In this document: one piece after another, positions 23,962-61,358 of the stretch
How positions within the stretch are numbered: position 1 is the first letter of the stretch
Layout: each line of letters begins with the position of its first letter
Assembly: GCA_001819985.1 (NCBI GenBank)
Contig: MHOE01000025.1
Location: forward strand, 5,738-69,737
Length of the DNA stretch: 64,000 bases
From: Candidatus Spechtbacteria bacterium RIFCSPHIGHO2_02_FULL_43_15b
GTDB lineage: Bacteria > Patescibacteriota > Minisyncoccia > Spechtbacterales > HO2-43-30
Direction of reading: 5' to 3'
Made by a program: the position numbers and the translations under genes
The notes under the pieces: generated by a model
Seen by the model: only the letters and a program-made list of their open reading frames with translations
What the model was told of the DNA's origin: nothing
Database searches by the model: none

Positions 23962-24021
23962 GGTGACAACCTCCTTTTGATTTGCGAGATTCGCCCTCGC
24001 TGTTGCGGCCCGCCTCGACAT

Positions 24022-32694: not shown

Positions 32695-34989
32695 TTATTT
32701 AGTTATTACCCGATCCTCTAACTGCCTAGCAACATCTTCTAATTCCCTCGCCTCTGTCTCGTTGCCGTTTTTTCTGTATAAATCGCCAAGTTTTTTAAAA
32801 TATCTCGGTTCTTCAAGATTATTTTCAACTATCCTGGAATACCAAAATATAGCCCTTTCATATTCCTTTAATTTTTCAAAAACATAGGAAATATCCTCAA
32901 ATTCATCAATGCCCTCCGGCAAATACCCCAAAGATAAACCTTTCTCAAGCTCAGTACGGGCATATTCATACTCGCCGGATCCGGAATGCACATCGAAGAG
33001 CTGTAGGTGCGGGTTTACATAAAGCGGCTCTAACGAAGTTGCCTTATCCAAAAACTCCACGGCTTTCTTATAATCGCCCGTGGAAAGATAAATTTGCGCG
33101 AGAGATGAATAGGTTTGCTGATTATTGGGGCTCATTTCCATGGCATCTTCGAATGTTTTCTTTGCTTTATCCAAATATGTGGCATCGTACCTTCTCGCGT
33201 TGAAGTAAAGAGTCGCAAGTATCATCCTATCCCTATAATCAAGCGGGTTTTCTTTTATAGCGGTTCTTTCCATTATTTCCACGACATCGAACACGAATTC
33301 CGGAGTTGGAGTATCACCAGCCCTCAAACCCTTCAAGGTATTGTTTGAGAAAAATTCAGGTATTTGCCTGTTGCCCAAAGACGATACTGACAAACTTTTC
33401 TTGTATAACTCCAAACGATCTTCCGGAGGAAGCGCTGACGCATTCGCAATCAAACCCCAGCGCGCCACCTCTAATGATTGAACTCCAAAAGAAAATAACG
33501 AGTAAACCAGCAATATGCCGCATAATGTCAGCGATAGCGGGTTTACTATCAGAGAACCGCGCGCCTCCAATTTATCTTCGCCTTCCGAAACTTCACCGCT
33601 CCTCATTCCAGATACGAAAGCTAAAATAAACACAAACATCAGATATGTGTTTATCATATCGAACACTAGAAAGTTCTGCACGAAATAACTCGCTAAAGCC
33701 GTTACTATTATTGATGGAAACAGCCAGTCGGCCTTGCGCGTTATATCCGAACCGTCGTCTCTTTTCCCTTTTCTTAATATCCAGCGTTTAATAAGAAAAT
33801 AACCGACCGCGATGTAAATAAACATATAGCTTATAAGCCCGACAAAACCCGAATTTACAAGCTGATCCAAAACTATGTTGTGAGTTCTGTCATACCATAT
33901 TTCTCCTCCGCATTCAGATAATGGCAAGCACGGATTAAAGTATTGCGTGAACACGACATTAAAATTTTCAGGGCCCCACCCGAGAACAGGCCTTTCTTTA
34001 ATTCCCTGCAAAGCTATATCCCAAACTACTTTTCTCGCCCCTATCGTACCCTCCCTTGAAAAAAAATAAGGAAGTTTGCTTATTACGGCCTGGTTTTGCG
34101 TAAATGTTCCCCAAGCTATCACGCCGCCTACTGAAATCCCCAACACTATAAGCACCACCGCGATTGCCCTTGAAAAAGGTATTTTCTTTTCGAAAAATAG
34201 CCAAAATATCAATATCAAGAAAAATCCTCCGATCATTGAAACCAAAGCTCCGTAAGCAGTCGAGATAAAAATCGTAAACACAACCAAACAAACGCAAACG
34301 GCATAAAAACTTTTTAGCCATTGCCTGTTTTCTTTAATAATGAGCCAGATACTCAAGAAAACGCTAAACAAAAGATACGCCGACATAAAACTTGAGTTTC
34401 CTATTGTCGAACCTTTACGGCTGTCGAATGAGATCAGGGATAAATTTTCGTTTACTTTTGGCAGTAAAAGCGCCAAACTAACTACCGTCGAAGCAAAAAG
34501 CACTCCCCCGACAAGCCGCTTCCACTCTTTCTCGGTTCTAAATGTCGAGCTTACGGCGATGAAATAAAGAACCAAGTGAACCCAGTTCACTATTCCCGCC
34601 ATTCTCTCAAGCGTACTCCAAAAACTGCGCTCTATATTGATTCCGGTAAATGAAGTTAATATGGCAACTCCCAAAAAAACAAAAACTGAAATGCTAACTA
34701 AATTCCAGCGAGGCCTGAACTGACGATTGGATATGGCGAGCACGACCCATGCCGCGAAAATAATTTCCGCGATCATCCAAAAAAATACCGTTTTAGGCAC
34801 GACAAAAGGAAAGAAAAATTCCGAAGAAACAACAACCGGCGTAAATAAAGAAGCATAAGCCCCCCATTCGATAATTTTTTTCAAAAACGAAGCAAGACCC
34901 GAATCTTTGCTTGACGAATCCTCCGACGATTGAACTTTCGCGATATTTTCCTGTTTGCGTTTTTTCTTCCTTGAAGATTTGTGGCTCAC
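32695..34989 (-). CDS. O-antigen ligase/Wzy-like polytopic membrane protein with C-terminal TPR repeats
   Basis: ~12 TM helices with a Wzy_C-like loop, and a soluble C-terminal ~250 aa with TPR-like repeats. Confidence 0.55.
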   Translation of the reverse strand: MSHKSSRKKKRKQENIAKVQSSEDSSSKDSGLASFLKKIIEWGAYASLFTPVVVSSEFFFPFVVPKTVFFWMIAEIIFAAWVVLAISNRQFRPRWNLVSISVFVFLGVAILTSFTGINIERSFWSTLERMAGIVNWVHLVLYFIAVSSTFRTEKEWKRLVGGVLFASTVVSLALLLPKVNENLSLISFDSRKGSTIGNSSFMSAYLLFSVFLSIWLIIKENRQWLKSFYAVCVCLVVFTIFISTAYGALVSMIGGFFLILIFWLFFEKKIPFSRAIAVVLIVLGISVGGVIAWGTFTQNQAVISKLPYFFSREGTIGARKVVWDIALQGIKERPVLGWGPENFNVVFTQYFNPCLPLSECGGEIWYDRTHNIVLDQLVNSGFVGLISYMFIYIAVGYFLIKRWILRKGKRDDGSDITRKADWLFPSIIVTALASYFVQNFLVFDMINTYLMFVFILAFVSGMRSGEVSEGEDKLEARGSLIVNPLSLTLCGILLVYSLFSFGVQSLEVARWGLIANASALPPEDRLELYKKSLSVSSLGNRQIPEFFSNNTLKGLRAGDTPTPEFVFDVVEIMERTAIKENPLDYRDRMILATLYFNARRYDATYLDKAKKTFEDAMEMSPNNQQTYSSLAQIYLSTGDYKKAVEFLDKATSLEPLYVNPHLQLFDVHSGSGEYEYARTELEKGLSLGYLPEGIDEFEDISYVFEKLKEYERAIFWYSRIVENNLEEPRYFKKLGDLYRKNGNETEARELEDVARQLEDRVITK

Positions 34990-37052: not shown

Positions 37053-38444
37053 ATGGCTAATATACTCAAAATAAAACAACTTATACTCCTTGGCGGCGAC
37101 ACTATACTTATGATTTCTTCGCTTCCCGCGATGCTTTTTATTTCATTCCAGCAAACTCTAACCCAAGAAATTTTTGCCGCCCATTTTTTTCCGTTTTTGG
37201 GAATATACGCCCTGCTTATAATAGTATTCTACATAAACGGACTTTACGAAATACGCAGTTTTGCCCCGAGCTCATCGGTCATAGCAAAACTTGTCATATC
37301 TCATACTTTGGGGTTTGTATTCGGTATAGTGATATTTTACTTTTCGTCAGATCCGCAAATAACACCTAAGATTAACCTTGCGTTAAACATAGCGATTTCT
37401 TTCTCGCTGGTAAGCGCATGGCGTATTGTTTTTCAGCGTTTTATCGCCCAGCATCTTAAAACAAATGTCGCGATAGCCGGAATGAACGAACACGCGAAAG
37501 AACTAGCTCGCATAATAAAAGCGCGGCCCTATATTGGGTATCGACTGAAAGCCGTTATAAAAACCGATGAATTATTGGGTTCGGATTTGCCCGAAGACGA
37601 ATCAGAATATGCGAATATTTTACGCATAGATAAAAACCTTGCTCAAAATTTAATAAATCTCGATATTCAAACCGTTATAACTTCAGAAAATCCTCACGCA
37701 AACCCCTTGATAACCAAAGCATTCTATGAGTGTATGCCATACGGAATAGAATTCCTCGACTTGGCGCAAAGCTACGAAATATTGACCGGACGCATACCAA
37801 TTTCTTACATAACGCAGGCCTGGTTCCTCGAAAACATAAACGAACATCAAAAACGCCTGTACACGAACTTCAAGCGGGTAATAGATCTGGTCGTGGCGAT
37901 TGTTGTGCTTATTGTTACTTCTCCAGTATGGCCCGTTATCGCGTTTTTCATAAAGTTTGACACTAAAGGTTCCGTATTTTACACGCAAGAAAGAGTAGGT
38001 ATAAACAAAAAGGTTTTTCGACTTATAAAATTCAGGTCTATGGTGAGAGATGCGGAAAAAAATAAAGCCGTATGGGCGCAAAAAAATGACCCGCGCATAA
38101 CGCGTATTGGAAAATTTCTTCGACGCACGCATATTGATGAGCTCCCTCAAATGATAAATATAGCAAGAGGTGAAATATCTCTTGTGGGCCCGAGGCCCGA
38201 AAGGATCGAGTTCGTAAAAGAACTTGAATCCCAAATACCGCACTATAATGTCCGACATATCATAACTCCGGGATTCACGGGATGGGCGCAGGTAAATTTC
38301 CGTTACGCCCGAACTCCAGAGGATACCTATGAGAAATTCCAATACGATCTTTACTATCTTAAAAACAGGTCGATAATTTTGGATATCGCGATAATATTAA
38401 AAACGATAAGTCTTTTATTCAGAGGTGAAAAAAATGGAAAATAA
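37053..38444 (+). CDS. Polyprenyl-phosphate hexose-1-phosphate transferase (WbaP/WcaJ-like initiating sugar transferase)
   Basis: Five N-terminal TM helices and a C-terminal bacterial sugar transferase domain (VIDLVVAIVVLIVTSPVWPVIA...KFRSM...DELPQ). Confidence 0.8.
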   Translation: MANILKIKQLILLGGDTILMISSLPAMLFISFQQTLTQEIFAAHFFPFLGIYALLIIVFYINGLYEIRSFAPSSSVIAKLVISHTLGFVFGIVIFYFSSDPQITPKINLALNIAISFSLVSAWRIVFQRFIAQHLKTNVAIAGMNEHAKELARIIKARPYIGYRLKAVIKTDELLGSDLPEDESEYANILRIDKNLAQNLINLDIQTVITSENPHANPLITKAFYECMPYGIEFLDLAQSYEILTGRIPISYITQAWFLENINEHQKRLYTNFKRVIDLVVAIVVLIVTSPVWPVIAFFIKFDTKGSVFYTQERVGINKKVFRLIKFRSMVRDAEKNKAVWAQKNDPRITRIGKFLRRTHIDELPQMINIARGEISLVGPRPERIEFVKELESQIPHYNVRHIITPGFTGWAQVNFRYARTPEDTYEKFQYDLYYLKNRSIILDIAIILKTISLLFRGEKNGK

Positions 38445-40341
38445 ACGGATTATAAAAATAGCGGACAGGATTATAGGGGAAGATTATCCCGTCTACATAA
38501 TCGCCGAAATCGGCCTTAATCACCAAGGCGATACTAAGCTTGCCAAAAATCTAATTGACATTGCTAAGCAAAGCGGAGCTGATTGCGTCAAGTTTCAAAA
38601 AAGATGCCTGGAAAAGGTCTATAAGAAAGATGCCCTTCTAAATCCCGAACGGCAGGAGCACGGAATAGAATATGTGCTTTCCCATATCAAAAAAACTGAA
38701 CTGTCCGATGAGCAAATGAAGGATCTCTACCAATATGCAAACAGCGTGGGTATTGAATTTATGTGCAGTCCCTGGGATGAAACCAGCTTAAAATTCCTGT
38801 CCAATCTTAGCGTTAACGCGTACAAAGTTGCCTCCGCGGATATGTTTAATTTGCGTCTTATTGAAGCTATAAACAAACTTAAAAAACCGATGATCATATC
38901 TACTGGAATGTCTTTCGTATCGGAAATAGAAGAGCTCGTTCGTTTTCTTAAAAAAATAGATGCTCAATTTGCGCTTCTGCATTGTAACAGCACTTATCCC
39001 GCCCCATATCACGACATAAATTTAAATTTCTTGAAAGTTATGCGCCAAAAATTCGGATGCGTTGTGGGATATTCCGGCCATGATAGAGGCATATCCGTAA
39101 GCCTTGCCGCGGTTGCTATGGGCGCAAGCATAGTTGAAAAACATATCACCATAGATAGAAATCTTCCCGGACCGGATCATAAAGCAAGTCTCGAACCTGA
39201 TGAATTTAAGAGTTTAGTCGCTGAAATAAAAAATGTCGAGAAAGCAATGGGGGAGCCCACGCGTTATCCGTCGAGAGGAGAATACTTAAACAGGGAAACG
39301 CTATCTAAAAGTATAGTAGCCGCCAATAATCTAAAAATCGGCCAAATACTCAAACAGTCCGACATGGAAATAAAAAGCCCCGGAAAAGGAGTCAGCCCCT
39401 TGAAAATAAATTATTTTGCCGGAAAAAAATTAACCAAGAGAAATATAGAAAAAGATGACTACATACTCGAATCAGACATTAAAACTTCGCGGAAACGCAA
39501 AACTGACAATCTCGGCATAAAACATAAATGGGGCGTTGTGGCGCGCATGAGCGATATAGATGAAATGATTGCCTGCGGTTCGGATTTTGTTGAGCTCCAT
39601 CTTACGGATGTTGACATAAATCAGGACAAAACCTATCGAAAATCGTACGACATAGATATGGCCCTTCACGGACCCGAATACAACAGAGATATTCTTATGG
39701 ATTTATCCAGTATGGATGGGGTCATCAGAAAACAATCTGTCGATTTTTTCAACAAAGCACTCGAACACGCAAAAAAATTGAAACCTTTGTTTAGGAATAA
39801 AAACGAAAACGCGAAATTTGTGGTGCATCCCGGCGGCATGAGCATGAATGCTCCCCTCTTCGACAAAATCGAGACGCTTAACGGCAATCTTCGAGATTCG
39901 TTATCTAAATTAAATTCGGACGGATTCGAAATACTGCTCGAAACAATGCCCGGAATGCCGTGGTATTTTGGGGGCCAGTGGTACCACGCTTCATTTATGG
40001 ATGCTGATGAAATAGTTGATTTTTCGAAGAAAACAGGTTTTGGAATAACGCTGGACCTGTCGCATTCCGCGCTCTACTGCAATTTATACAAAAAGGATCT
40101 GGAGCAGTTTGTAAAAACTATACTTCCTGTAGTCCGGTATCTTCATATTTCAGATGCCGCAGGATTCAACGGCGAAGGTCTCCAGATACAAGACGGCACA
40201 ACGGATTTCAAAAAAATATTAAAACACCTATCCGAAACTGACCTATGGTTCCTTCCTGAAATATGGCAGGGGCATAAATTTGGCGGAGAAGGATTCATTA
40301 CCGCAGTCAGAAGGCTTAAAAAGATAGACCCTGATTTTTGA
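38425..40341 (+). CDS. NeuB-family nonulosonate/octulosonate synthase fused to a xylose-isomerase-like TIM-barrel (sugar phosphate isomerase/epimerase) domain
   Basis: N-terminal NeuB signature YIIAEIGLNHQGD...CVKFQKR plus a SAF-like middle region. The C-terminal ~270 aa carry ILLETMPG and YLHISDAAG motifs typical of the AP-endo/xylose-isomerase TIM fold. Confidence 0.6.
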   Translation: MKKMENKRIIKIADRIIGEDYPVYIIAEIGLNHQGDTKLAKNLIDIAKQSGADCVKFQKRCLEKVYKKDALLNPERQEHGIEYVLSHIKKTELSDEQMKDLYQYANSVGIEFMCSPWDETSLKFLSNLSVNAYKVASADMFNLRLIEAINKLKKPMIISTGMSFVSEIEELVRFLKKIDAQFALLHCNSTYPAPYHDINLNFLKVMRQKFGCVVGYSGHDRGISVSLAAVAMGASIVEKHITIDRNLPGPDHKASLEPDEFKSLVAEIKNVEKAMGEPTRYPSRGEYLNRETLSKSIVAANNLKIGQILKQSDMEIKSPGKGVSPLKINYFAGKKLTKRNIEKDDYILESDIKTSRKRKTDNLGIKHKWGVVARMSDIDEMIACGSDFVELHLTDVDINQDKTYRKSYDIDMALHGPEYNRDILMDLSSMDGVIRKQSVDFFNKALEHAKKLKPLFRNKNENAKFVVHPGGMSMNAPLFDKIETLNGNLRDSLSKLNSDGFEILLETMPGMPWYFGGQWYHASFMDADEIVDFSKKTGFGITLDLSHSALYCNLYKKDLEQFVKTILPVVRYLHISDAAGFNGEGLQIQDGTTDFKKILKHLSETDLWFLPEIWQGHKFGGEGFITAVRRLKKIDPDF

Positions 40342-40380
40342 TATTGACTAAATGGCATTTTTATTCAATAACATAATGGT

Positions 40381-41427
40381 ATGGAAAAGACCAAAATAGC
40401 ATTGATTACAGGATGCACGGGACAAGATGGATCTTACCTCGCGGAATTTCTGCTTAAAAAAGGGTACGAAGTTCACGGTATAAGAAGGAGGAGCAGTATA
40501 GCAAAACTTGATAGGCTAAGCCGCATACACTACGGCCCCCATGCAGAAAGAAACAAATTTTTTCTTCATTACGGAGATATAACCGATTCCGCAAGCATTA
40601 CCCAGATAACGAAAAGGGTTAAACCTGATGAAGTTTATAATCTAGCCGCCCAAAGCCATGTTCGGGTGTCTTTTGATACTCCGGAATACACCGCAAATAC
40701 TGACGCCTTGGGTCCTCTTCGCGTACTAGAAGCAATACGAACATTGGGGTTTGTACGGAAGACCAAATTTTATCAAGCGTCAACAAGCGAAATGTTCGGA
40801 AACCCGCTGGAATCCCCTCAACACGAAAATACTCCGTTTTTTCCTAGGAGCCCTTACGGCATAGCAAAACTGTACGCGCATCTCATCACGGCAAATTATC
40901 GCGAAGCTTACAATATGTTTGCTTGCTCGGGAATACTATTCAATCACGAATCTCCTCGCCGAGGCGAAAGTTTTGTAACAAGAAAAATAACTCAAGCGGC
41001 TATCAGGATAGTAAGGCGAAAACAGGACAAACTTTATCTTGGAAATCTTTACGCCAAACGGGACTGGGGATACGCAAAAGAATATGTCGAAGCTATGTGG
41101 CTCATGCTTCAGCAAAAAAAACCAAAAGATTATGTTATCGCCACTGGAGAAAACCACACAGTTAAAGAATTCGCAGAGCTTGCTTTTAGAGTACTCGATA
41201 TAGACATAGAATGGCAAGGTCAGGGAATATCCGAAAAGGGAATAAACAAAAAGAATGGCAAGATTATCGTTGAGATTGATCCATATTACTTTCGCCCCAC
41301 AGAAGTTGAAAATCTTGTCGGCAACGCCTCGATGGCGAAAAAAGAACTTGGCTGGGCCCCCAAAACAAAGTTTCAAAAACTTGTCAATTTAATAATGGCA
41401 GAGGAAGTAAAAAATAAAGACCTTTGA
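40381..41427 (+). CDS. gmd: GDP-mannose 4,6-dehydratase
   Basis: ALITGCTGQDGSYLAEFLL...YEVHGIRRRSS is the canonical GMD N-terminus; the length is 348 aa. Confidence 0.85.
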   Translation: MEKTKIALITGCTGQDGSYLAEFLLKKGYEVHGIRRRSSIAKLDRLSRIHYGPHAERNKFFLHYGDITDSASITQITKRVKPDEVYNLAAQSHVRVSFDTPEYTANTDALGPLRVLEAIRTLGFVRKTKFYQASTSEMFGNPLESPQHENTPFFPRSPYGIAKLYAHLITANYREAYNMFACSGILFNHESPRRGESFVTRKITQAAIRIVRRKQDKLYLGNLYAKRDWGYAKEYVEAMWLMLQQKKPKDYVIATGENHTVKEFAELAFRVLDIDIEWQGQGISEKGINKKNGKIIVEIDPYYFRPTEVENLVGNASMAKKELGWAPKTKFQKLVNLIMAEEVKNKDL

Positions 41428-43784
41428 TATTCGGACAGTTGATGAACAAAAATTCTCCAAAAAATCCAATAAATATTCTTCCTTCGCATTCGAAAAAGAA
41501 ATGGGTTATTTTTTCTGTTCCATTGGTTGTTTTATTCATTACCATACCCGCCGTATTTCTAAGGCCATCAAATCAAACTCTAGTAAAAATGTTTACTAAA
41601 CTCGATGAAACTCCGCAGATACAGGAACTAGCATTTAACATTCTTCAAGCCCGAACATCTCTTCAGAAATCAGCAAATATAATACATTTTCCGTATTGGT
41701 TCAAGGAAACAAAACTGCCGGTTTACAATTTATTTATAGATCCGGACGACATAAGGATCATGGATGATATCCTCCCGCAAAATATCTTTTCCGACAATCT
41801 CGATGTCGAAAATCGCGTGTTTGTAAATGCCGTTTTTCAATCAGGCGATTTTTTAAGCGAAGCTGATGTTAGGTATAGAGGCGCGCTCAATAGCCATTGG
41901 ACTCACGCGAAAAGATCCTTACTTATAAAATTCCCGGGGGACAAATTATTCCAAAAAATGAAAGCGATTGACATAATAGTTCCGCGCGACAGGGCCTATC
42001 TTATGGAACTCGTAAATAATTCGCGCCTTAAAAGAGCAGGTCTTGTTTCCCCGAATATGTTTTTCGCTTGGGTAAAAATCAACAACAAAGACGCGGGCGT
42101 TTATCTAGTTAAGGAGAGATTCTCCGCGGGATGGCTTGAAAAAAATTCCATAGCGCCTGACAGCGAAATTTTTTCTCAAGTAACCAGCGTGGACAAAAAT
42201 ACTCCGTATATTGATTTCAATTTGTATGAATACATAGCATGGACAAGGGAAATCAACCAGACAAACCAGCATTTTGAAGAGCTTGAAACTTTGTTCTATC
42301 TCTTTCGGCAGTCCGATGAAATTTTCTACAAAAACATAGCGAACATCCTCGATCTTGAAAAATGGTACGGAGCTATTGCTATGAATATTCTCGCGGGCGG
42401 TTCGCACTCAATGGAAGCGAATCTCAACCTGCTGTTTAATAGCGTAACCGGAAAATTAGAACCGCTTCTTGAAGATATTCATATTTACGAAGCGGAACAT
42501 AACGGCGACCCCAGGAAAGCGTATCTCACTTTTGATCCGATAACAAAGCGCATCCTTGAAAATCAAAAATTTTACGAGGATTACCAGAAAGTTCTTTTGA
42601 AAACGGTTTCAGAACAAAATCTTAAAGCGGATCTTGAATTATACGACCAGCTGTACGAACAAATGAAACCCGAATTCTACAAGGACCAGACAAAATACAA
42701 GGGGGATATCAGGGTGGATATCACAATAAAGGAAATGCGGGAGTGGATAATGCTAAATTATAAATCCGCCCAAAAACTCGCGAATCTGGACAAATTCCCA
42801 AAATTCGATGACATATACAAGGACTTGGAAGATATGCTTGACCTTAGCAATCGTATGGGTTTTGAAAATTTTTATGATATATCCCTTTCAAAATCCGAAT
42901 TCATGAAAAAATACCCCGCGTTTAGAATATTCGGCGACAATATTGTCTTACCCAGAGGAATTTACGCTATCAATGAAACCGTAATCATACCTCAAAACAC
43001 AAAGCTTATAATAGAACCCGATGTGAAAATTTATCTCGGCGAAGGCGTATCCGTAATATCCTACAGCCCGATAGAAGCCGTTGCGCAGTCATATAACCCG
43101 ATAATTATAAATAGCGCATACCCTGATAAACCGTGGGGTGCGGTAGCAATAATAAACGCAAACGAAGCAAGTAAATTCCAATATGTCTCGATGAGTGGAG
43201 GTTCGGCATCGGAAGGGATAAATGGTGTTACATTCACGGGAATGCTTACCGCTCATAATGCTCCTCTTTATGTATATGATTCCAACTTATCGTTTGATAG
43301 AGATGACGATATAATAAATGTTAAGGGCTCTACTGGAGAAATAATGAGATCTAAATTTTATGACTCTATTGGAGATGCTGTTGATCTAGATATGACGAGC
43401 GGTTTTATAGTTCAGGATAACTATTTCTATAACATCGGCACCAAACAGGTTCAAGGAGACGCGATTGATATTTCGTTCAGCGACGCTCTTGTAAAAAATA
43501 ACAAAGTTGATAAATGCTCCGATAAGGGTGTGAGCATTGGGGAGAGGTCAAACCCAACAATAACTGGAAATATAATAGAAAACTGCGTTATGGGCATAGC
43601 CGTTAAGGATGAATCCTCGGCAATGATTGAAAATAATGTGCTTTCGCATAATTTGATAGGTCTTTCCCTTTACCAAAAAAAGGACATATTCGGAGGCGGA
43701 ACCGCGATCATAAAAAATAACACCATAGAAAACAACGAAAAAAATTTTGATATAAGTAAAAATTCCACTATACTAAACCCTTAA
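41424..43784 (+). CDS. CotH-family atypical kinase domain protein with C-terminal parallel beta-helix repeats
   Basis: N-terminal TM helix, CotH-like core (YRGALNSHWTHAKRSLLIKF ... AWVKINNKDAGVYLVKE) and C-terminal NNxV/GIxV right-handed beta-helix repeats. Confidence 0.55.
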   Translation: MIFGQLMNKNSPKNPINILPSHSKKKWVIFSVPLVVLFITIPAVFLRPSNQTLVKMFTKLDETPQIQELAFNILQARTSLQKSANIIHFPYWFKETKLPVYNLFIDPDDIRIMDDILPQNIFSDNLDVENRVFVNAVFQSGDFLSEADVRYRGALNSHWTHAKRSLLIKFPGDKLFQKMKAIDIIVPRDRAYLMELVNNSRLKRAGLVSPNMFFAWVKINNKDAGVYLVKERFSAGWLEKNSIAPDSEIFSQVTSVDKNTPYIDFNLYEYIAWTREINQTNQHFEELETLFYLFRQSDEIFYKNIANILDLEKWYGAIAMNILAGGSHSMEANLNLLFNSVTGKLEPLLEDIHIYEAEHNGDPRKAYLTFDPITKRILENQKFYEDYQKVLLKTVSEQNLKADLELYDQLYEQMKPEFYKDQTKYKGDIRVDITIKEMREWIMLNYKSAQKLANLDKFPKFDDIYKDLEDMLDLSNRMGFENFYDISLSKSEFMKKYPAFRIFGDNIVLPRGIYAINETVIIPQNTKLIIEPDVKIYLGEGVSVISYSPIEAVAQSYNPIIINSAYPDKPWGAVAIINANEASKFQYVSMSGGSASEGINGVTFTGMLTAHNAPLYVYDSNLSFDRDDDIINVKGSTGEIMRSKFYDSIGDAVDLDMTSGFIVQDNYFYNIGTKQVQGDAIDISFSDALVKNNKVDKCSDKGVSIGERSNPTITGNIIENCVMGIAVKDESSAMIENNVLSHNLIGLSLYQKKDIFGGGTAIIKNNTIENNEKNFDISKNSTILNP

Positions 43785-43817
43785 ATTTGGATCTATACAT
43801 TCAAATTTTAACGAAGC

Positions 43818-44564
43818 ATGGAAAACAATTTTTTTAGATTTGAATTCAAATATCCCATACCCAGATACTTAATACGAAATTTTGAATATGATTTAATTAG
43901 GTTTGGTTTTTCCAGGGACACATTCAATATCGGGGAAAAATATTATGTTTCTAGCGTATATTTTGAAACTCCGGGTGCCGCCGATTACTTTGATAAATCC
44001 GGAGGATTTCTGGATAGAAAAAAAATCAGGGCTAGAATATATCGAGATGCCCTTACTGCGGACGAACCCGACAAGCCCTCGATTTGGCTTGAAATAAAAA
44101 AAAAGCATGACATGATGATTTCCAAAAATAGGGTATGCGTAACTCCGCGCGAATGGGAAAATTTCCTTTCGTCGAATCAAAGAGGTTACAGGAAAATATC
44201 CGAGCGACTTAATGCTGAAGATGAAAAAATATTGACTGAATTTGTCTTTTGGACTACATATGAAAGAAGGAAGCCCTATGTGCTTATACAATACAAGCGG
44301 CGCGCTTTTCATAGCTTTACCGGCGGTGAGCGGGTAAGAGTAACCATTGACTATGATATAAGAGCTCAAAAGGGCGATAAATTTTTAACCAACCCCTCAA
44401 CTGATGTAAGCCAACATGGCGCTGTTATTGAAGTAAAATTCCGAGAAAAACTTCCCTGGCAGATAAAATTTTTGCTGTCTAAATACAAACTAAGCAGAGA
44501 TTCTTACTCTAAATATTCTAAAGGAGTTGAGGCTATGAGAAAATTTTATCCGATATATCGATAG
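43818..44564 (+). CDS. VTC-domain (polyphosphate-polymerase-like triphosphate tunnel) protein
   Basis: RFEFKYPIP...EIKKK pattern of alternating charged residues on beta strands typical of VTC/CYTH tunnels. It lies directly downstream of the CotH gene. Confidence 0.5.
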   Translation: MENNFFRFEFKYPIPRYLIRNFEYDLIRFGFSRDTFNIGEKYYVSSVYFETPGAADYFDKSGGFLDRKKIRARIYRDALTADEPDKPSIWLEIKKKHDMMISKNRVCVTPREWENFLSSNQRGYRKISERLNAEDEKILTEFVFWTTYERRKPYVLIQYKRRAFHSFTGGERVRVTIDYDIRAQKGDKFLTNPSTDVSQHGAVIEVKFREKLPWQIKFLLSKYKLSRDSYSKYSKGVEAMRKFYPIYR

Positions 44565-44565
44565 G

Positions 44566-44646
44566 TTTTAGCTTTTAGATGTCAGGTATTAGACGATCGT
44601 TTCGCCGTAATCCCTAAAACCTAAAACCTAGCACCCAAAACCTAAT
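44566..44646. repeat. Family R intergenic inverted repeat (GGTTTTAGCTTTTAG...CCTAAAACCTAAAACC)
   Basis: Arms are reverse complements and a TTTCGCCG core matches the copy at 45325. Confidence 0.55.
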
Positions 44647-45324
44647 ATGCAGCCACTAAACTATTTTTCTTTTTCTCCGACAGAAGTAAGCATGGCTGTT
44701 GTACTGTTCAATATTTTTCTTGCTACGGTCATAGCTTTCGCAATCGCGTATGTGCATAAATACACCCATACTGGTCTTTCATATTCCCAGTCCTTTTTCG
44801 CGACTTTAATTCTTGTTTCGATTATAGCAAGCGTCGTGATGATGATTGTCCAAAATAATGTATATGCCGCTTTGGGATTGCTTGGCGCATTTGCGCTGAT
44901 AAGATTCAGAACGATAATAAAAGAAACCAGGGACATCGCATTTTTGTTTTTTGCTTTAGCGGAAGGTGTTGCGATGGGCCTTAGTCATTACGCGGTTGGA
45001 ATAGTTTCAGCGATCATAATATCCGCCGTTGCTTACGCCATATTTAGGTTTAACTTGGGTTCAACTTCCGACAAAAAATTTGTGCTTCTTTTGACATCGA
45101 AATTGCCCATTGATCAAGTTGCGGTAAACAGCCAGCTCAAAAGTGAAGGGCTGAATCTTTCTATGTTAAGCAGTAAAAAACGCCAAAATGACTTTTATGA
45201 ATACACATTTTCTCTTTCGGGAAAGAATGTCGGCTCTGCCGATAAGATAATAAGTAAATTCGCCTCTTCCCTATCCATAACGGAATATGATCTTGTAAGC
45301 GGAAGGGAATCGATAGAATACTAA
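44647..45324 (+). CDS. DUF4956-like membrane protein
   Basis: Four TM helices and an ALIRFRT motif. It occupies the conserved third position of the CotH-VTC-DUF4956 neighbourhood. Confidence 0.45.
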   Translation: MQPLNYFSFSPTEVSMAVVLFNIFLATVIAFAIAYVHKYTHTGLSYSQSFFATLILVSIIASVVMMIVQNNVYAALGLLGAFALIRFRTIIKETRDIAFLFFALAEGVAMGLSHYAVGIVSAIIISAVAYAIFRFNLGSTSDKKFVLLLTSKLPIDQVAVNSQLKSEGLNLSMLSSKKRQNDFYEYTFSLSGKNVGSADKIISKFASSLSITEYDLVSGRESIEY

Positions 45325-45405
45325 GGTTGCTAGATTTTAGATATTAGGTAGGTGTTAGTTAATCGCCGCATCCTAAAACCCAAAACCTTCAGCCTAAAAC
45401 CTTGC
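45325..45405. repeat. Family R intergenic inverted repeat
   Basis: GGTTGCTAGATTTTAGAT...AATCGCCG...CCTAAAACCCAAAACCT is homologous to the copy at 44566. Confidence 0.55.
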
Positions 45406-46643
45406 TCCTCAAATCAAAGGCATATAATCTCCTTCGAAAAACTCAAAAATATACTCGTACTGACAATGTTTACCTTTTTAAGAGCGGTTTTTGGCTTACG
45501 CTACCGAAGGCAGTTTCGTTTCTAAGCATACTTTCGGGAATCGCTTTCGCCAATCTTGTATCGAAGGAAACCTACGGCACATATCAGTATATTTTATCCA
45601 TTCTTGGCATATTAAGCATCGCCACTCTTCAGAGTATGAAAACAGCCGTAGCTCAAGCGGTAGCAAGGGGCTATGAGGGATCCGTAAAGAAGGCTGTCAT
45701 TTCCAAAATAAAATGGGGGCTTTTAGGAAGCGTCGGCAGTATTTTGTTTTCCGCCTATTATTTCTACCATGGCAACGCGACGCTCGGCTGGGCATTTGTG
45801 ATAACAGCCGCGCTTCTTCCATTTCTAAATCCTTTCTCGCTCTATGCCGCTTATCTTGAGGGGTCAAAAAATTTCAAACTGCTAAGCATTTTTTCGATTC
45901 TCTCGACTGCCGTATCCATAGCCGCGATAATTGTAATACTATTTATAACTGATAATGTTTTACTCATAATACTCGGGGATCTCTTAGTCGGAATAATTGT
46001 GGCATTCGCGTTTTTCAATATTGTCATAAAAAAATTCCCTCCCAACGCCAAAGAAGACCCTAAGACAATACCGTTCGGAACTCGCGTTAGTTTGATAAAG
46101 ATAATCCCGACAATAGCGAGAGAGCTTGACCAAATAATTATTTGGCATTTTTTAGGAGCGGCGCAAGTCGCTATTTACGCCTTCGCCCAGAAAATACCAA
46201 CCCAGTTAAGCGATAATCTAAGCGTTTTGAACCAGCTTGCGTTCCCAAAAATGAGCGCGGCTTCGAGTGATGACCTGAAAAAAAACCTCCCTAAAAAAAT
46301 AATACGCTTGTATGCTATGATAATCCCCCTAGGAATCGCCTATATTCTGTCCGTTCCATTTGTGTTCAAAATTTTCTTTCCGCAGTATTTAGATTCTATT
46401 TTATACGCTCAAATTTTTTCGTTTTTCATATTTTTCTTCCCGCTTTCATTTATTAGCCAAACATTTGACGCGAAAATGCAGGAAAAAAACATACTGATAA
46501 CAAGTATATTCTCGCCTACTCTTAGGATAATACTGCTTCTCATACTTACTCCAACTATTGGAGTAATGGGCGTCGTCCTAACTCGCCTTATAAACTCTTT
46601 TGCCACTAATTTGCTCGCGATATTTCTTTTTCTAAAAAAATAG
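45402..46643 (+). CDS. Wzx-like oligosaccharide flippase (MOP superfamily)
   Basis: 413 aa with ~12 TM helices and a polysaccharide-biosynthesis-protein N-terminal pattern. Confidence 0.6.
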   Translation: MLLKSKAYNLLRKTQKYTRTDNVYLFKSGFWLTLPKAVSFLSILSGIAFANLVSKETYGTYQYILSILGILSIATLQSMKTAVAQAVARGYEGSVKKAVISKIKWGLLGSVGSILFSAYYFYHGNATLGWAFVITAALLPFLNPFSLYAAYLEGSKNFKLLSIFSILSTAVSIAAIIVILFITDNVLLIILGDLLVGIIVAFAFFNIVIKKFPPNAKEDPKTIPFGTRVSLIKIIPTIARELDQIIIWHFLGAAQVAIYAFAQKIPTQLSDNLSVLNQLAFPKMSAASSDDLKKNLPKKIIRLYAMIIPLGIAYILSVPFVFKIFFPQYLDSILYAQIFSFFIFFFPLSFISQTFDAKMQEKNILITSIFSPTLRIILLLILTPTIGVMGVVLTRLINSFATNLLAIFLFLKK

Positions 46644-46693
46644 TTTCTAGCTGTAACTGATTGACTATGTTAATGTTTATGGTAATATAGTAT

Positions 46694-47155
46694 ATGCTAA
46701 AAAATAACGCCAAAACGATCCTTGTTTCTTCCGATATCATCAAGAAAACTCTTCGTTCTTCCAAAACTCCCGGCAAAAAATTGCTGGATCCTCTTTTCGC
46801 TTTTTCTTCTAAAAACAATCTCCCACTAAACATCCTCGAGAGTAAAGGTGTTCTTGAAAACGACGCGGAGGCGCATGAATACGAAGGAGATTTATGGCAT
46901 TGCCTCGAGGGAACTATTGAATTTGTATGCGGAGGAGAACTGGTAAAACCCGTACTCGCGAAAGACGCTAACGGAAAAAATATCACGGGCGAATTGAAGT
47001 CCAAAGTTATTAGACGCGGTAAAAAATTTATCCTCAAAAGAGGTGACTGGCTCTGGATACCGCCAGGCGAACCCCACAAACATATAACAAAAACGGCCGC
47101 TCGATTGTTTATAATAAAAATTCCGATAAAAAATAGCCATGACAAAAAAAATTAA
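46694..47155 (+). CDS. Cupin-domain protein
   Basis: GDWLWIPPGEPHK cupin motif. The end overlaps the next gene start. Confidence 0.45.
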   Translation: MLKNNAKTILVSSDIIKKTLRSSKTPGKKLLDPLFAFSSKNNLPLNILESKGVLENDAEAHEYEGDLWHCLEGTIEFVCGGELVKPVLAKDANGKNITGELKSKVIRRGKKFILKRGDWLWIPPGEPHKHITKTAARLFIIKIPIKNSHDKKN

Positions 47156-47870
47156 AACGCTGGGAATAATACCCGCAAGAGGCGGATCGAAAAGCATCCC
47201 CTATAAAAACATTGCCCCGCTAGCGGGGAAACCCTTAATATACTACACAATAAAAGAAGCTAAAAAATCCAAACTTCTCGATGCTTTCATAGTTTCCACG
47301 GATGATCCCAAAATCGCAGAGGTTGCAAAATCTTATGGAGCTGATGTTCCATTTTTAAGACCGAAAAGATTTGCCCGTGATAAATCCGTCGATATTGAAT
47401 TCTTGAAGCACGCGATCGAGTGGCTCGAAAAAAACCGTTCATATAAACCAGAAATAGTATTGAATTTAAGGCCTACTTCCCCCCTTCGGACCGCGAAAGA
47501 TATAGATGATGTAATTTCCATTATGACAAGGACTAAGTGCGATTCCGTAAGAACTCTTACCTCCCCTTACCCGCACAATCCATTCAAGATGTGGCATTTC
47601 GCGAATGCAAAAAGTTCCAAAATAAAACCCTTACTGCCGACAAAATATTTCAATCATCTTGGAACTGATGTACCCCGACAACTTCTGCCGGATGTTTACT
47701 GGCAAAATGGTCTTGTTGACGCCACGCGCGCCAAGTTCATAAAGCAAGGGATTGTTTATGGACCAGATATGCGAGGACTCATAATAGAAACGGAAAGGTC
47801 TATGGATATAGATGAGCCCGAAGATTTGAAAAGGGCTGAAGAACTTATGAAAAATCTAAAATTACTCTAG
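47139..47870 (+). CDS. CMP-nonulosonate/octulosonate cytidylyltransferase family (NeuA/KdsB-like)
   Basis: LGIIPARGGSKSIPYKN N-terminal signature. Confidence 0.75.
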   Translation: MTKKIKTLGIIPARGGSKSIPYKNIAPLAGKPLIYYTIKEAKKSKLLDAFIVSTDDPKIAEVAKSYGADVPFLRPKRFARDKSVDIEFLKHAIEWLEKNRSYKPEIVLNLRPTSPLRTAKDIDDVISIMTRTKCDSVRTLTSPYPHNPFKMWHFANAKSSKIKPLLPTKYFNHLGTDVPRQLLPDVYWQNGLVDATRAKFIKQGIVYGPDMRGLIIETERSMDIDEPEDLKRAEELMKNLKLL

Positions 47871-47935
47871 GTTTGGGGGTTGGATGTTGGAAAAGGTCGA
47901 TTCTAACCTTTAACCTAGACCTAATGCATATTATG
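47871..47935. repeat. Family R-like intergenic element
   Basis: GGTTTGGGGGTTGG...CTAACCTTTAACCTAGACCTAAT. Confidence 0.4.
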
Positions 47936-48937
47936 AAATTTCTTATTGCCGGCCTTGGCTCAATCGGCCAACGCCACTACAAAAATTTAATTGAATTAGG
48001 GCATAAAGATATTACTGTCTATAGAACCGGAAAAGGCGACCGCAAATTTGTGGCTAATTTTGAAAAAATATACAACCCCATTGTATTTGACGACCTCAAA
48101 ACCGCGCTTCTTGAAAAACCCGATGTATTGATAATATCAAACCCCACCATATTCCATGCCGAATTTATAAAACTCGGCATACAAAACAATTTGAAGGGAA
48201 TTTTTGTTGAGAAACCGGCCGCGGTCTCTGCGAACTCGATTAAAAATTTAGTCGCGCTTGCCGATAAAAACAATGCCATTGTCTATATCGCGTATAATTT
48301 CAGGTTCCATCCGTTGCTCCAAAGAATGCGTAAATTTTTAACAGAGAATGCCATCGGAAAAGTTTTGTCGGCTTCGGTAGATATGGGAGAATACCTGCCG
48401 GATTGGCACCCGTGGGAAGATTATAGGTACACATACGCCGCAAGAGCGGATCTTGGAGGAGGAGTGGTTCTCACTCAAAGCCATGACATTGATTATCTTT
48501 ACTGGTTTTTCGGAATGCCGGATAAAATCGCGGCCTTTGGCGGAACAAGGACGGGTCTCGAAGTAAGCGCTGAAGATTTGGTGAAAGCTGTTTTTGATTA
48601 TAGCGACGGAAGTATAGCGTCTTTGAATATGGATTTTTACAGAAAGCCCCCGCGAAGAACATTTGAAATAATAGGAACTGCGGGGACGCTATTATGGGAT
48701 TATCATAACGGCACTTTGACATTTACTCCTCACGAGCAGAATAAAAAGGCAAAAACTTTTGCCGTCCTAGAAAATTTTAACAGAAATCAGATGTTCCTTA
48801 GCGAGATGAAGCATTTTGTAAATTGCGTAAAGGGAAAGGATGATCCAAAAGTTACTTTTAAGGATGGCCTAAATGTGTTAAGAATATGCGAAGCGATATT
48901 GAAATCAATGAATACTGGAAAAATTGTCAAATTATAA
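47924..48937 (+). CDS. Gfo/Idh/MocA-family NAD(P)-dependent oxidoreductase
   Basis: KFLIAGLGSIGQRH Rossmann N-terminus and a C-terminal alpha/beta domain. The ORF-track start at 47873 is probably an over-extension. Confidence 0.7.
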   Translation: MHIMKFLIAGLGSIGQRHYKNLIELGHKDITVYRTGKGDRKFVANFEKIYNPIVFDDLKTALLEKPDVLIISNPTIFHAEFIKLGIQNNLKGIFVEKPAAVSANSIKNLVALADKNNAIVYIAYNFRFHPLLQRMRKFLTENAIGKVLSASVDMGEYLPDWHPWEDYRYTYAARADLGGGVVLTQSHDIDYLYWFFGMPDKIAAFGGTRTGLEVSAEDLVKAVFDYSDGSIASLNMDFYRKPPRRTFEIIGTAGTLLWDYHNGTLTFTPHEQNKKAKTFAVLENFNRNQMFLSEMKHFVNCVKGKDDPKVTFKDGLNVLRICEAILKSMNTGKIVKL

Positions 48938-48985
48938 CTTACCGTAGCCGTCACCTCTAGAATACGGGGTGATAGCGCGTAAAAA

Positions 48986-49780
48986 ATGAATAACACTGCA
49001 ATAAGAAATTTATTTTCCCTTAAAAACCGCGTAGCTATCATTACCGGCGGCGCCGGCATACTTGGCATGGAATACGCAAAAACCCTTTTTTTATCTGGCG
49101 CTAAAGTAATTCTTTTTGACATAAAAGAAAATTTCACATTGCCGAGAAATCTTAAGGCGAAATACATTAAAGTAGACATCTCAAATAAAAATGAAGTTGA
49201 CGAGGCGATAAAAACTGTTTTGCGATTATACAAAAAAATTGATATTTTGATAAATAATGCCGCGTTAAATCCGGTACCCGGGAGCGAACAATCTAAAAAC
49301 CTGTTTTTACCGTACGAACAATACCCCGAGGATTTATGGAGAAAGGATCTGGATGTTAATATAACTGGGTCGCAATTTTGCACGCAATCAGTGGTTCCAT
49401 TTATGAAAAAACAAAAAAAAGGAACTATTATAAATATATCCTCTATCTACGGAATAACCGGACCGGATAATAGGATCTATGATGCGGGAAAGTTTAAGTC
49501 CATAGGGTATGCGACAACTAAAGGCGCTATGGAAAATTTTACCCGATCATGGGCTTCATACCTTGAAAGTACGGACATAAGAGTAAACACTCTGACTCTC
49601 GGCGGAGTATTCGCTAACCAATCCGAACAATTCGTAAAAGCGTACAGTTCGAAAACGATTCTTGGAAGAATGGCGAAAAAAGATGACTTTAATTGCGCTA
49701 TTCTATTTTTAGCTTCAGATGCTTCAAGATATATGACCGGTTCAAACCTCATTATAGACGGCGGATGGAGCGCGTGGTAA
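48986..49780 (+). CDS. Short-chain dehydrogenase/reductase
   Basis: VAIITGGAGILG and a YxxxK catalytic site. Confidence 0.75.
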   Translation: MNNTAIRNLFSLKNRVAIITGGAGILGMEYAKTLFLSGAKVILFDIKENFTLPRNLKAKYIKVDISNKNEVDEAIKTVLRLYKKIDILINNAALNPVPGSEQSKNLFLPYEQYPEDLWRKDLDVNITGSQFCTQSVVPFMKKQKKGTIINISSIYGITGPDNRIYDAGKFKSIGYATTKGAMENFTRSWASYLESTDIRVNTLTLGGVFANQSEQFVKAYSSKTILGRMAKKDDFNCAILFLASDASRYMTGSNLIIDGGWSAW

Positions 49781-49781
49781 T

Positions 49782-50993
49782 TTAAGCTCCTTTTCTTTGC
49801 AATAAACAATCGTTCTCATTTCCGGACAAATCGTGCGCCACTTCCCCGAAATTTTCGTCAAAGGGCCAATAACCAATGATTTTTTCCTTTGATATAACTG
49901 GCGGATTATTCGTTGCGCCGCTATACAGCGAAAAAATTTCATCTTCACTTAGGTCCCTGTTGAATATGTAAAGTTCATCCAGGTAACCGTCATAATTGTA
50001 GCAAGGCCCGCTGAACGGGTCTCCCTTAAATACGCACTTTCCCAACACTAATGGATATTCGGATCCGAAAACGCCTAGCAGATCATCGCTGGAATTAAAC
50101 TTAAGATCATAATCTTCCCATGATTTATCTAACTCGCCGTCAAAGTATGAAGTTATTATCCAGTTTCTGATTTCTTGAACGATTCCGTAATCGTCAACTT
50201 TACTGTGATTTTCATACTTAAACACTATTGCTATATGATGCCAAGTGTTATCTATAAAACCGCTCACTCCTCCTCCGCTAATAGAAACTTTTGAATCATC
50301 CGCTTGGAATAGTATGCTACCGTTTTTACTTTCACCTCTTAATGTCATGGACCACCATCGTTCCCTTGGTCTTCCCTTAAAAACAATGTCCTTGGGGTAA
50401 AGAGGAGCATTCATATCCTGCTTTATCCAAGCCGAAATTGTCATATCCGAAGTGCCTAGTAACCGAGTTGAAGAGGAATTACCACAATTAAGCCAAGCGT
50501 CTTCTGATCCAAAAAAAATAGAATTTCCGATAACTCCTTCGGCCCATTTGACAGTACGGCCATCTGATATAAACCCCTCCCAAGGCGGAGGAACCCCCGT
50601 CTCTTTAATGATTTCTTCTTTCGGCGGGACCTCTAGATCCTCGACAGATTTTTCTCCGTTGCTTGGATTTTCCGGCAAGGGATTTGCGACTAAATCTTCT
50701 GAATTATCTTCTTCGGTCGAATTTTTTTGGTCGTTCCGGTCGCCCTGGCTAGTAGTATCGTCTAAAACTTCGGCACCCCCATTTTCCAGATTATCCGGAT
50801 TCATAATTATTTTTTCGCTATTTTCCGTAAGAAGATTTTTAGAAATATTGCCTTCGTTTTGACTTCCGATATATGATAGGCCATCAAACTGCTCGACTTC
50901 GCCATTGGTATGAATTGATTTTACAAAAAACGCGGCGCTTAAAACTAAAGCGCTTATGCCAAATGTTATAATTTTGATAAAACTAAAATTCAT
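49782..50993 (-). CDS. Secreted LamG/concanavalin-like domain protein
   Basis: Signal peptide, an acidic low-complexity linker and a C-terminal jelly-roll-like region. Confidence 0.4.
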   Translation of the reverse strand: MNFSFIKIITFGISALVLSAAFFVKSIHTNGEVEQFDGLSYIGSQNEGNISKNLLTENSEKIIMNPDNLENGGAEVLDDTTSQGDRNDQKNSTEEDNSEDLVANPLPENPSNGEKSVEDLEVPPKEEIIKETGVPPPWEGFISDGRTVKWAEGVIGNSIFFGSEDAWLNCGNSSSTRLLGTSDMTISAWIKQDMNAPLYPKDIVFKGRPRERWWSMTLRGESKNGSILFQADDSKVSISGGGVSGFIDNTWHHIAIVFKYENHSKVDDYGIVQEIRNWIITSYFDGELDKSWEDYDLKFNSSDDLLGVFGSEYPLVLGKCVFKGDPFSGPCYNYDGYLDELYIFNRDLSEDEIFSLYSGATNNPPVISKEKIIGYWPFDENFGEVAHDLSGNENDCLLQRKGA

Positions 50994-61181: not shown

Positions 61182-61295
61182 ATTCCTTAATAAATAACAT
61201 TATTTGATTACTTTGTCCATTATGGTATAGTGTATGTCCGTACGAATACATAGGTTCAACCTGTGTATTCATTTTAGGTATAATGCTATGTTACT

Positions 61296-61345: not shown

Positions 61346-61358
61346 ATATGAAAATCTG

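Follow-up and report, generated by a model that had tools for sequence, protein, structure and literature searches.

A conserved CotH-like/beta-helix, VTC and DUF4956 gene module in a surface-glycan locus of Candidatus Spechtbacteria

Why should a protein with a kinase-like fold, a candidate polyphosphate polymerase and a small membrane protein be encoded side by side in the middle of a polysaccharide operon? The question is raised by a 64,000-nucleotide (nt) stretch of DNA (the window) from Candidatus Spechtbacteria bacterium RIFCSPHIGHO2_02_FULL_43_15b, whose lineage is a member of the candidate phyla radiation (CPR). Between positions 41424 and 45324 the window contains three plus-strand open reading frames (ORFs) of 786, 248 and 225 amino acids, at the positions given by an earlier note that had described them as a CotH kinase fused to a beta-helix, a VTC-type tunnel protein and a DUF4956 membrane protein. 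The three genes are one conserved envelope module, whose probable role at the cell surface is to add or to supply phosphate. New in the present case are the CPR lineage, the Wzx/Wzy pseudaminic-acid context, the beta-helix fusion and a His-type active site. The module bears on the roles of the bacterial VTC-domain "polyphosphate polymerases" and of the MgtC-like DUF4956 proteins, as well as on how a secreted kinase-fold enzyme could work outside the cell, where there is no ATP. Patescibacteria have small genomes, and their cell surface is thought to be important for a host-attached lifestyle.

Domains were called with Pfam profiles and judged by the curated gathering cut-offs. All four domain assignments of the earlier note (CotH, beta-helix, VTC and DUF4956) score above these cut-offs, and since the profile searches recover CotH, VTC and DUF4956 significantly, the original observation stands. 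Single-sequence searches of solved structures gave no match for any of the three proteins, therefore family profiles were used instead. The CotH/beta-helix fusion is not an assembly artefact, because the 786-residue ORF and the gene order recur in independently assembled contigs: the VTC protein is present on 23 contigs, and the six that were inspected (five independent assemblies and the NCBI genome) have the identical gene order.

The three proteins of the module

The first gene (41424..43784, plus strand) encodes a CotH-like protein that is fused to a right-handed beta-helix and predicted to be membrane-anchored. Its start is ambiguous, i.e. it is either a TTG at 41424, which overlaps the stop codon of the preceding gene for GDP-mannose 4,6-dehydratase (GMD), or an ATG at 41442, which is the choice of most gene callers and gives a protein of 780 residues. 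CotH (PF08757) matches residues 149-446 over positions 1-319 of the 322 in the profile (E 3.1e-8, 33.9 bits, cut-off 23.8), and Beta_helix (PF13229) matches residues 630-781 (E 1.7e-14, 54.2 bits, cut-off 25.9), with additional matches to NosD and DUF1565. The N-terminal hydrophobic anchor (residues 28-46, 41505..41561) reaches a Kyte-Doolittle peak of 2.71 in a 19-residue window, and coincides with a helix at residues 22-45 of the AlphaFold2 (AF2) model. The N-terminal side of the anchor has five Lys/Arg and no Asp/Glu, the C-terminal side three Lys/Arg and two Asp/Glu. Hydropathy and charge rules, the only basis used for the topology, predict an N-in/C-out orientation with the CotH-like and beta-helix parts outside the cell. 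An N-terminal hydrophobic segment is present in 133 of the 137 full-length relatives.

Both folds of the fusion are recovered by structure prediction, as the earlier note had suggested checking. The AF2 model was built from 12 relatives and has a mean predicted local distance difference test (pLDDT) value of 81.7. The kinase-fold domain spans residues ~95-460 (41706..42803), as delimited by the profile alignment to the CotH structure 5JD9 and by residue conservation, while the right-handed parallel beta-helix, delimited by Pfam, by fold matches and by a strand ladder with pLDDT above 90, spans residues ~500-786 (42921..43781). The best Foldseek match of the predicted structure is Bacillus cereus CotH (5JDA/5JD9, E 2.4e-13, template-modelling score 0.76, normalised to the target). 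The beta-helix half has the expected likeness to glycan-active proteins: it matches the AlgG epimerase 4OZY (E 1.4e-5) and the alginate lyase 6KFN (E 1.2e-4), mannuronan epimerases and PL6 alginate lyases are also among the fold matches, and weaker ones (E 4e-3 to 1.4e-2) include phage tailspikes and the Vibrio polysaccharide lyase RbmB. Many Asp columns of the beta-helix domain are conserved among the relatives.

Is the CotH-like domain a kinase, as it had been called? The kinase-like fold is supported both by Pfam and by the match of the predicted structure to 5JDA, but the catalytic Asp is missing. Its position (D224 in B. cereus, D228 in B. subtilis) is taken by His328, with the same D/H-x4-N spacing. 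A profile of gene 1 relatives aligns to 5JD9 with E 3.8e-12; His328 falls exactly on the catalytic Asp in HMMER and one residue off in MAFFT, in a loop whose alignment draws on a predicted structure and on the 18-19% identity that gene 1 shares with the CotH structures over the aligned part. In the gene 1 subfamily alignment His328 is invariant, and no conserved acidic residue is found near it. The metal-binding Asp is kept as Asp351 (B. cereus D247, B. subtilis D251), which is invariant in the close family, and the catalytic-loop Asn is kept as Asn333. In B. subtilis CotH both the D228Q and the D251A mutants are inactive (PMC7821199). Among 159 aligned relatives, His328 is conserved in 136, Asn333 in 146 and Asp351 in 127, with Asn at the metal-binding position in 20; the RG...K(K/R)S strand is strongly conserved as well.

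An exhaustive search of 1.84 billion cluster representatives returned 1382 relatives of gene 1 at E <=1e-3, 111 of them at E <=1e-30, and 94 of the best 150 representatives carry the beta-helix. Judged by its sequence, gene 1 is thus part of a distinct and well-populated clade of "His-type" CotH-like proteins that are usually fused to a beta-helix and predicted to be anchored at the surface. The conserved His at the catalytic position suggests a chemistry unlike that of the canonical CotH Ser kinases. Planctomycetes and a Planococcus plasmid have triads whose CotH proteins retain the canonical Asp ("NIDAGH" in Planococcus).

The second gene (43818..44564, plus strand) encodes the 248-residue protein, which matches VTC (PF09359) with E 5.9e-31 and 108.3 bits (cut-off 23); no other Pfam family, CYTH included, matches at E values up to 10. 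A family profile of 25 relatives matches the catalytic domain of Vtc4 (3G3Q, E 3.7e-16), and the best solved relatives are Vtc4 catalytic domains. Residues R7, K11, R71, R73, E92, K94, Y159, R161, R174, E205 and K207 of gene 2 correspond to R196, K200, R264, R266, E279, K281, Y359, R361, R373, E426 and K428 of Vtc4, respectively, and further conserved columns are found at K294 and D377 of the Vtc4 numbering. The tunnel residues needed for catalysis in Vtc4 (K200, R264, R266, K281, Y359, R361, E426 and others) are invariant in the 25 relatives; R264A/R266A/E426N is a published, catalytically dead form of Vtc4 (PMC9911596). The chain is a single Pfam domain with a hydropathy maximum of 0.37 and no membrane segment, and the Pfam scan and hydropathy plot reveal neither an SPX sensor nor a C-terminal membrane domain in it. 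These features identify gene 2, at the level of sequence, as a soluble cytoplasmic triphosphate-tunnel protein of the Vtc4 type with intact tunnel residues, and as a candidate polyphosphate polymerase. Our literature search found no biochemical characterisation of a bacterial VTC or DUF4956 protein, only papers on pel and incidental mentions.

The third gene (44647..45324, plus strand) encodes the 225-residue protein, which matches DUF4956 (PF16316; E 5e-13, 49.6 bits, cut-off 30.6) and has 160 relatives, mostly in Patescibacteria. In its AlphaFold model (pLDDT 85.4) a helical membrane domain (residues ~15-134) precedes an ACT-fold domain (144-218) of the order beta-alpha-beta-beta-alpha-beta. 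The protein had been described as having four transmembrane segments; the membrane nature holds, and we correct the number to 4-5, because the hydropathy plot contains three strongly hydrophobic segments plus two weaker helices. The invariant residues are found in two loops, T40-H41...S45-Y46-S47 and R86-F-R-T-x-x-K-E-T-R-D96, both of which are predicted to be on the cytoplasmic face by the positive-inside rule. With its helical membrane domain and ACT-fold domain the modelled protein looks MgtC-like. Pfam MgtC (PF02308) matches over profile positions 3-114 of 121 with E 0.01 and 16.6 bits, which is below the cut-off of 31.4, and hhalign gives a 70% probability for DUF4956 against E. coli YhiD. 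What distinguishes DUF4956 here from MgtC/SapB/YhiD is the RFRTxxKETRD motif and the near-obligate VTC neighbour. The DUF4956 profile found no significant relative by sequence among solved structures. A likeness to the membrane helices of Vtc1/Vtc4 was also considered, and rejected for want of sequence or fold evidence.

Genomic surroundings and related systems

The triad is part of a tight same-strand gene array (37053-49780) in which neighbouring genes overlap or are separated by gaps of at most 82 nt. The order is phosphoglycosyl transferase, NeuB-like fusion, GMD, triad, Wzx-like flippase, cupin, PseF-like cytidylyltransferase, Gfo/Idh/MocA oxidoreductase and PtmA-like short-chain dehydrogenase. 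The placement between GMD and the flippase inside a polysaccharide operon, as claimed earlier, is borne out by GMD on one side (40381..41427, plus strand; TIGR01472 546.8 bits, cut-off 415; GDP_Man_Dehyd E 2.6e-146) and by a Wzx-like MOP flippase on the other (45402..46643, plus strand; Polysacc_synt_3 and Polysacc_synt, both above cut-off). The phosphoglycosyl transferase is of the type that initiates exopolysaccharides (TIGR03025, 367 bits, cut-off 295.6). The opposite strand of the locus encodes a Wzy_C/TPR protein (32695-34989, minus strand), a UDP-sugar dehydrogenase, PseI (above cut-off), a formyltransferase and a GT2 protein. An initiating transferase, a MOP flippase and a Wzy-like polymerase/ligase are thus all encoded, and the host locus is of the Wzx/Wzy type, for an acidic glycan containing nonulosonic acid (pseudaminic-acid type); we call the glycan acidic because a UDP-sugar dehydrogenase and nonulosonic-acid enzymes are present. 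The operon boundaries are drawn from gene spacing and strand alone, since promoter and terminator scans of the region performed no better than on shuffled sequence. No structured RNA or tRNA was found in the spacers or elsewhere in the window. An anti-phage defence role of the module was also considered and rejected, as there is no PADLOC match.

Does the arrangement recur in other genomes? One genome per GTDB species was scanned with the DUF4956 alignment as seed, the VTC alignment being too variable for this purpose, and the neighbourhoods were annotated with our own ORF calls and profiles. This gave 48 loci, which are biased to DUF4956-containing genomes and to Patescibacteria because of the seed. 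Most of them are from Patescibacteria (Spechtbacteria, Liptonbacteria, Ryanbacteria, Lloydbacteria, Taylorbacteria, Giovannonibacteria, Magasanikbacteria, Gracilibacteria and others), and a few are from KSB1, Planctomycetes, Latescibacteria, Cytophagia and Proteobacteria. In 43 of the 48 loci the VTC gene immediately precedes DUF4956, with a median gap of 10 nt, whereas CotH is adjacent in 31, in 27 of which it is fused to a beta-helix; seven loci have two CotH paralogues. Because of this difference in adjacency, we consider the VTC-DUF4956 pair the core of the module and CotH a frequent third member. The neighbourhood comparison, which the earlier note had proposed, shows that the order of the triad recurs widely across Patescibacteria, usually with the CotH/beta-helix fusion. 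In a sister Spechtbacteria locus (L007) the order GMD-CotH-VTC-DUF4956-Wzx-cupin-cytidylyltransferase is kept at 48-60% protein identity.

The neighbours of the module were counted in two genes on each side of the CotH-containing modules (108 proteins, where one protein may match several Pfam families). Glycan families head the counts, which are stated without a genome-wide background: GT1 7, PMT_2 7, GMD/epimerase 7, GT2 5 and Wzx 5, along with methyltransferases (8) and carbamoyltransferase (2). VTC-DUF4956 pairs that lack CotH have a similar pattern of neighbours. Single loci with a glycan context include a Ryanbacteria locus (L008), L059, and L060, where a GT2-VTC-DUF4956-PMT_2 run occurs without CotH. 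The glycan context is frequent, not obligatory.

A few variants of the arrangement deserve to be mentioned. The Ryanbacteria locus L008 has at 137-2208 a second CotH gene, without a beta-helix, next to a DUF4956 gene and with no VTC gene; this pair directly follows a Wzx-like gene and is located about 5 kb upstream of a full CotH-beta-helix/VTC/DUF4956 triad. In loci of KSB1, Latescibacterota and Cytophagia and in an unclassified metagenome-assembled genome (L050), the gene upstream of VTC-DUF4956 encodes not CotH but a conserved, membrane-anchored protein of ~360 amino acids (L048 6066-7169, L050 6058-7152, L054 6075-7151, L056 3181-4260, L049 1707-2804, L051 4379-5461 and L052 6046-7134). 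Among the 66 flank proteins scanned, 2 match HlyD-type families. Finally, in a Clostridia-like metagenome contig with dockerin and ricin-lectin neighbours (L058, 4554-9495), VTC-DUF4956 adjoins a 1037-residue protein of the Cthe_2159 family, which we take to be a carbohydrate-binding beta-helix, and no CotH was called within the 9.7-kb contig stretch. If the family is indeed of this nature, the locus would suggest that the beta-helix partner can occur without the kinase-like domain.

It is useful to compare the module with the systems in which its members were described before. The earlier note had called the triad a set known to co-occur, and two publications agree with this (10.1101/768473, PMC12345266). 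Whitfield et al. (2020, 10.1101/768473) described four accessory genes, namely cotH, one for a polyphosphate polymerase, DUF4956 and DUF4832, which are contiguous with the pelDEADAFG genes of streptococci, clostridia and bifidobacteria. In Streptococcus intermedius, SIR_1594 is a secreted CotH with FN3, SIR_1593 a protein with a polyphosphate polymerase domain, and SIR_1592 a four-helix MgtC-like domain followed by an ACT domain; mutants in the DUF4956 and CotH homologues produce less Pel and show reduced aggregation (mBio 2025, PMC12345266). There are several similarities to the present locus: the same three families are encoded on one strand next to exopolysaccharide genes, CotH is secreted or anchored, and DUF4956 combines an MgtC-like and an ACT domain. 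There are also differences. Neither Pel families nor DUF4832 are among the Pfam hits of the locus, which is of the Wzx/Wzy type with a phosphoglycosyl transferase and pseudaminic-acid genes; the order here is CotH-VTC-DUF4956, the partner of CotH is a beta-helix instead of FN3, the catalytic Asp is replaced by His, and the host is a CPR bacterium. The 2025 study did not find the synteny of the triad outside pel loci (PMC12345266); contrary to that statement, it does occur outside them.

A second related arrangement is NELoc-2 of Clostridium perfringens, with the layout VTC-DUF4956-CotH-hypothetical-HEAT repeat-glycosyltransferase (PMC2879425). We found the same layout on a Planococcus maritimus plasmid (NZ_CP059541.1; L062, 4470-12824), as hypothetical-VTC-DUF4956-CotH-hypothetical-HEAT-glycosyltransferase; the array being plasmid-borne, the module can travel on plasmids in Firmicutes. 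As in the Spechtbacteria locus, the VTC-DUF4956 pair adjoins a CotH gene and a polysaccharide synthase gene, but here CotH follows the pair, lacks a beta-helix and has the canonical Asp, and the glycan partner is a GT2-type synthase. Since the module recurs beside Wzx/Wzy loci, pel loci and GT2 synthases, it is probably a general accessory system of surface glycans and not specific to pel.

With Bacillus CotH (5JD9/5JDA) the first protein has in common the fold, the metal-binding Asp, the catalytic-loop Asn and the glycine/lysine strand motifs. Bacillus CotH differs in being an enzyme of the mother-cell cytoplasm that has the catalytic Asp and lacks both anchor and beta-helix; its substrates are Ser-rich coat proteins. 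In the yeast VTC complex (Vtc4/Vtc3/Vtc1; 7YTJ, 8I6V) the tunnel domain is homologous and has the conserved residues; as here, its partner is a small membrane protein of several helices with conserved basic residues, and synthesis coupled to passage through the membrane is the working model. The yeast channel is lined by basic residues needed for translocation (PMC9911596). In contrast to the yeast complex, SPX is absent here, a separate MgtC-like protein without relation to the Vtc1/DUF202 helices provides the membrane part, and the proposed target is the cell exterior instead of the vacuole, with translocation putative. For the B. cereus group, PPK-independent extracellular polyphosphate is reported in a 2026 preprint, which states that a VTC4 homologue is absent from this group; this is a thematic parallel only.

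Possible function and its alternatives

How could the three proteins act together? We propose, with a probability of roughly 0.4, that VTC and DUF4956 make polyphosphate and deliver it at the membrane, and that the exported glycan is the target of the CotH-like/beta-helix protein at the surface. The phosphorylation or polyphosphate-related modification that the earlier note had suggested is a reasonable inference. VTC would polymerise phosphate from ATP at the membrane, where DUF4956 would dock it through its conserved cytoplasmic basic loops and its ACT domain and would pass the chain, or phosphate from the chain, across or to the membrane. By parallel with the essential basic channel residues in yeast, the two proteins might be a two-protein analogue of the VTC complex. 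The beta-helix of gene 1 would hold the exported, pseudaminic-acid-type glycan, and the external CotH-like domain may transfer or attach phosphate or polyphosphate to it; if this domain is fed by polyphosphate, no extracellular ATP is needed. In favour of this proposal are the positive-inside anchor, the identity of the domains, the kept tunnel residues, the coupling of VTC and DUF4956, the recurrent glycan neighbours and the lowered Pel output and aggregation of the S. intermedius mutants.

Several points weigh against the proposal. The CotH-like domain may be inactive, because the canonical catalytic Asp is absent, and we know of no kinase-fold enzyme that uses polyphosphate as a donor. DUF4956 has no similarity to the membrane domain of Vtc1/Vtc4, and the MgtC family, to which it is likened by analogy, has no demonstrated transport function. 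A beta-helix groove rich in conserved Asp is an awkward binding site for polyanions unless metal ions bridge the two. As regards the neighbourhoods, the enrichment of glycan genes beside the modules is qualitative, and a Parcubacteria locus (L009) has the triad among housekeeping genes, between a SpoU methylase and MGMT/DnaG/RpoD. Nor is the CotH step obligatory, as some glycan loci contain a VTC-DUF4956 pair and no CotH gene. In its boldest form the proposal would have a two-protein equivalent of yeast VTC export polyphosphate, which a His-type CotH-like enzyme outside the cell uses in place of ATP to (poly)phosphorylate the polysaccharide held by the beta-helix. We consider this form doubtful; if true, such a glycan kinase system would be extracytoplasmic and independent of ATP, and PPK-independent extracellular polyphosphate would also be accounted for. 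The conserved residues K11, R71, R73 and E205 of VTC, H328 and D351 of the CotH-like domain and the RFRTxxKETRD motif of DUF4956 offer targets for mutation.

Different roles can be envisaged for the same proteins. The CotH-like protein could be part of a regulatory kinase system which phosphorylates envelope or glycan-assembly proteins and thereby tunes polysaccharide output, with VTC and DUF4956 concerned with phosphate status or signalling and not with the glycan. Canonical CotH is in fact a Ser kinase of proteins (PMC7821199), such a role was already proposed for the pel-linked genes (10.1101/768473), the S. intermedius mutants reduce Pel-dependent aggregation, and effects of MgtC on ATP synthase and PhoR have been reported (summarised in PMC12345266). 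For the present protein we find this unlikely, given that the catalytic Asp has become His in its clade, that the domain is predicted to be outside the cell with no ATP available, that the fused domain is a polysaccharide-type beta-helix and not a protein-binding module, and that no obvious gene for a Ser-rich substrate is seen at the window, sister, L008 and L009 loci. The lost Asp, together with Asn in place of the metal-binding Asp in 20 of 159 relatives, would agree with a CotH-like domain that is a dead scaffold. The beta-helix would then be a lyase or epimerase, an assignment made at the level of the fold, editing the acidic glycan, and VTC-DUF4956 a separate pair for polyphosphate storage or cation buffering that shares the operon. 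Uronate epimerases and lyases are the best beta-helix matches, the enzymes of the locus point to an acidic glycan, and the pair does occur without CotH. We regard this as possible, if somewhat unlikely: the strong conservation of His328, Asn333, Asp351 and the RG...K(K/R)S strand points to a functional active site, and hitch-hiking is a poor explanation for a CotH gene that adjoins VTC-DUF4956 in 31 of the 48 loci, in several phyla and in fixed order. It is quite improbable, in our opinion, that the VTC protein is no polymerase at all, i.e. that it resembles the many bacterial CYTH proteins that are triphosphate-tunnel hydrolases or cyclases, and serves the homeostasis of phosphate or energy together with an MgtC-like regulator. 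Although the tunnel fold supports several chemistries (PMC4641920), gene 2 is without the SPX and membrane domains of Vtc4, and our literature search found no characterised bacterial VTC-domain protein, the match to Pfam VTC and not to CYTH at E up to 10, the Vtc4 catalytic domains as best solved relatives and the preservation, throughout the aligned stretch, of all conserved Vtc4 tunnel residues speak for a polymerase.

An alternative of another kind concerns the origin of the genes. It takes DUF4956, or all three genes, for a mobile cassette of recent insertion whose boundaries are the "family R" repeats that the earlier note had placed on both sides of the DUF4956 gene. The presence of the repeats is confirmed: both spacers, between VTC and DUF4956 (44565..44646) and between DUF4956 and the flippase (45325..45401), contain imperfect palindromes with TTTTAGG heptads in the left arm, CCTAAAA heptads in the right arm and a short G+C-rich centre. 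The hairpins have folding energies of -20.1 kcal/mol (z -3.0) and -17 kcal/mol (z -1.4), respectively, and the repeat-containing VTC-DUF4956 spacer is 82 nt long as compared to the usual ~10 nt. The tie to the module does not hold. Five copies, all intergenic, are present in the 64 kb (4838-4920, 44560-44646, 45325-45404, 61293-61347 and 63098-63186; hairpin z -1.4 to -4.0), and the repeat is absent from the syntenic sister locus L007; being a window-wide intergenic element that the sister locus lacks, it is uninformative on the module. It has no Rfam match, and looks like a REP-like intergenic element of the genome. A cassette is therefore highly improbable, and the repeats are rejected as its boundaries, as three of the copies are at unrelated intergenic sites, the gene order recurs without repeats in L007 and across Patescibacteria, the GC content of the module matches the surroundings, and no transposase or integrase gene is found nearby.

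Other features of the window

At window positions 22001-24000 there is a G+C peak of 0.49, compared to ~0.41 elsewhere, for which no rRNA, tRNA or Rfam match accounts; overlapping ORFs are present on both strands there (23104-24099). In the glycan locus, the stretch at 49782-52476 (minus strand) encodes a Laminin_G_3 (concanavalin-like) protein with an acidic, low-complexity N-terminal region, followed by a 497-residue protein without Pfam or NCBIfam match, which may be an unrecognised polymerase or surface protein. The NeuB-like fusion of the array (38425-40341, plus strand) is a NeuB-type nonulosonic acid synthase with an SAF domain, fused at its C-terminus to a xylose-isomerase-like TIM barrel (AP_endonuc_2), and the stand-alone PseI at 52526-53662 (minus strand) is a second synthase.

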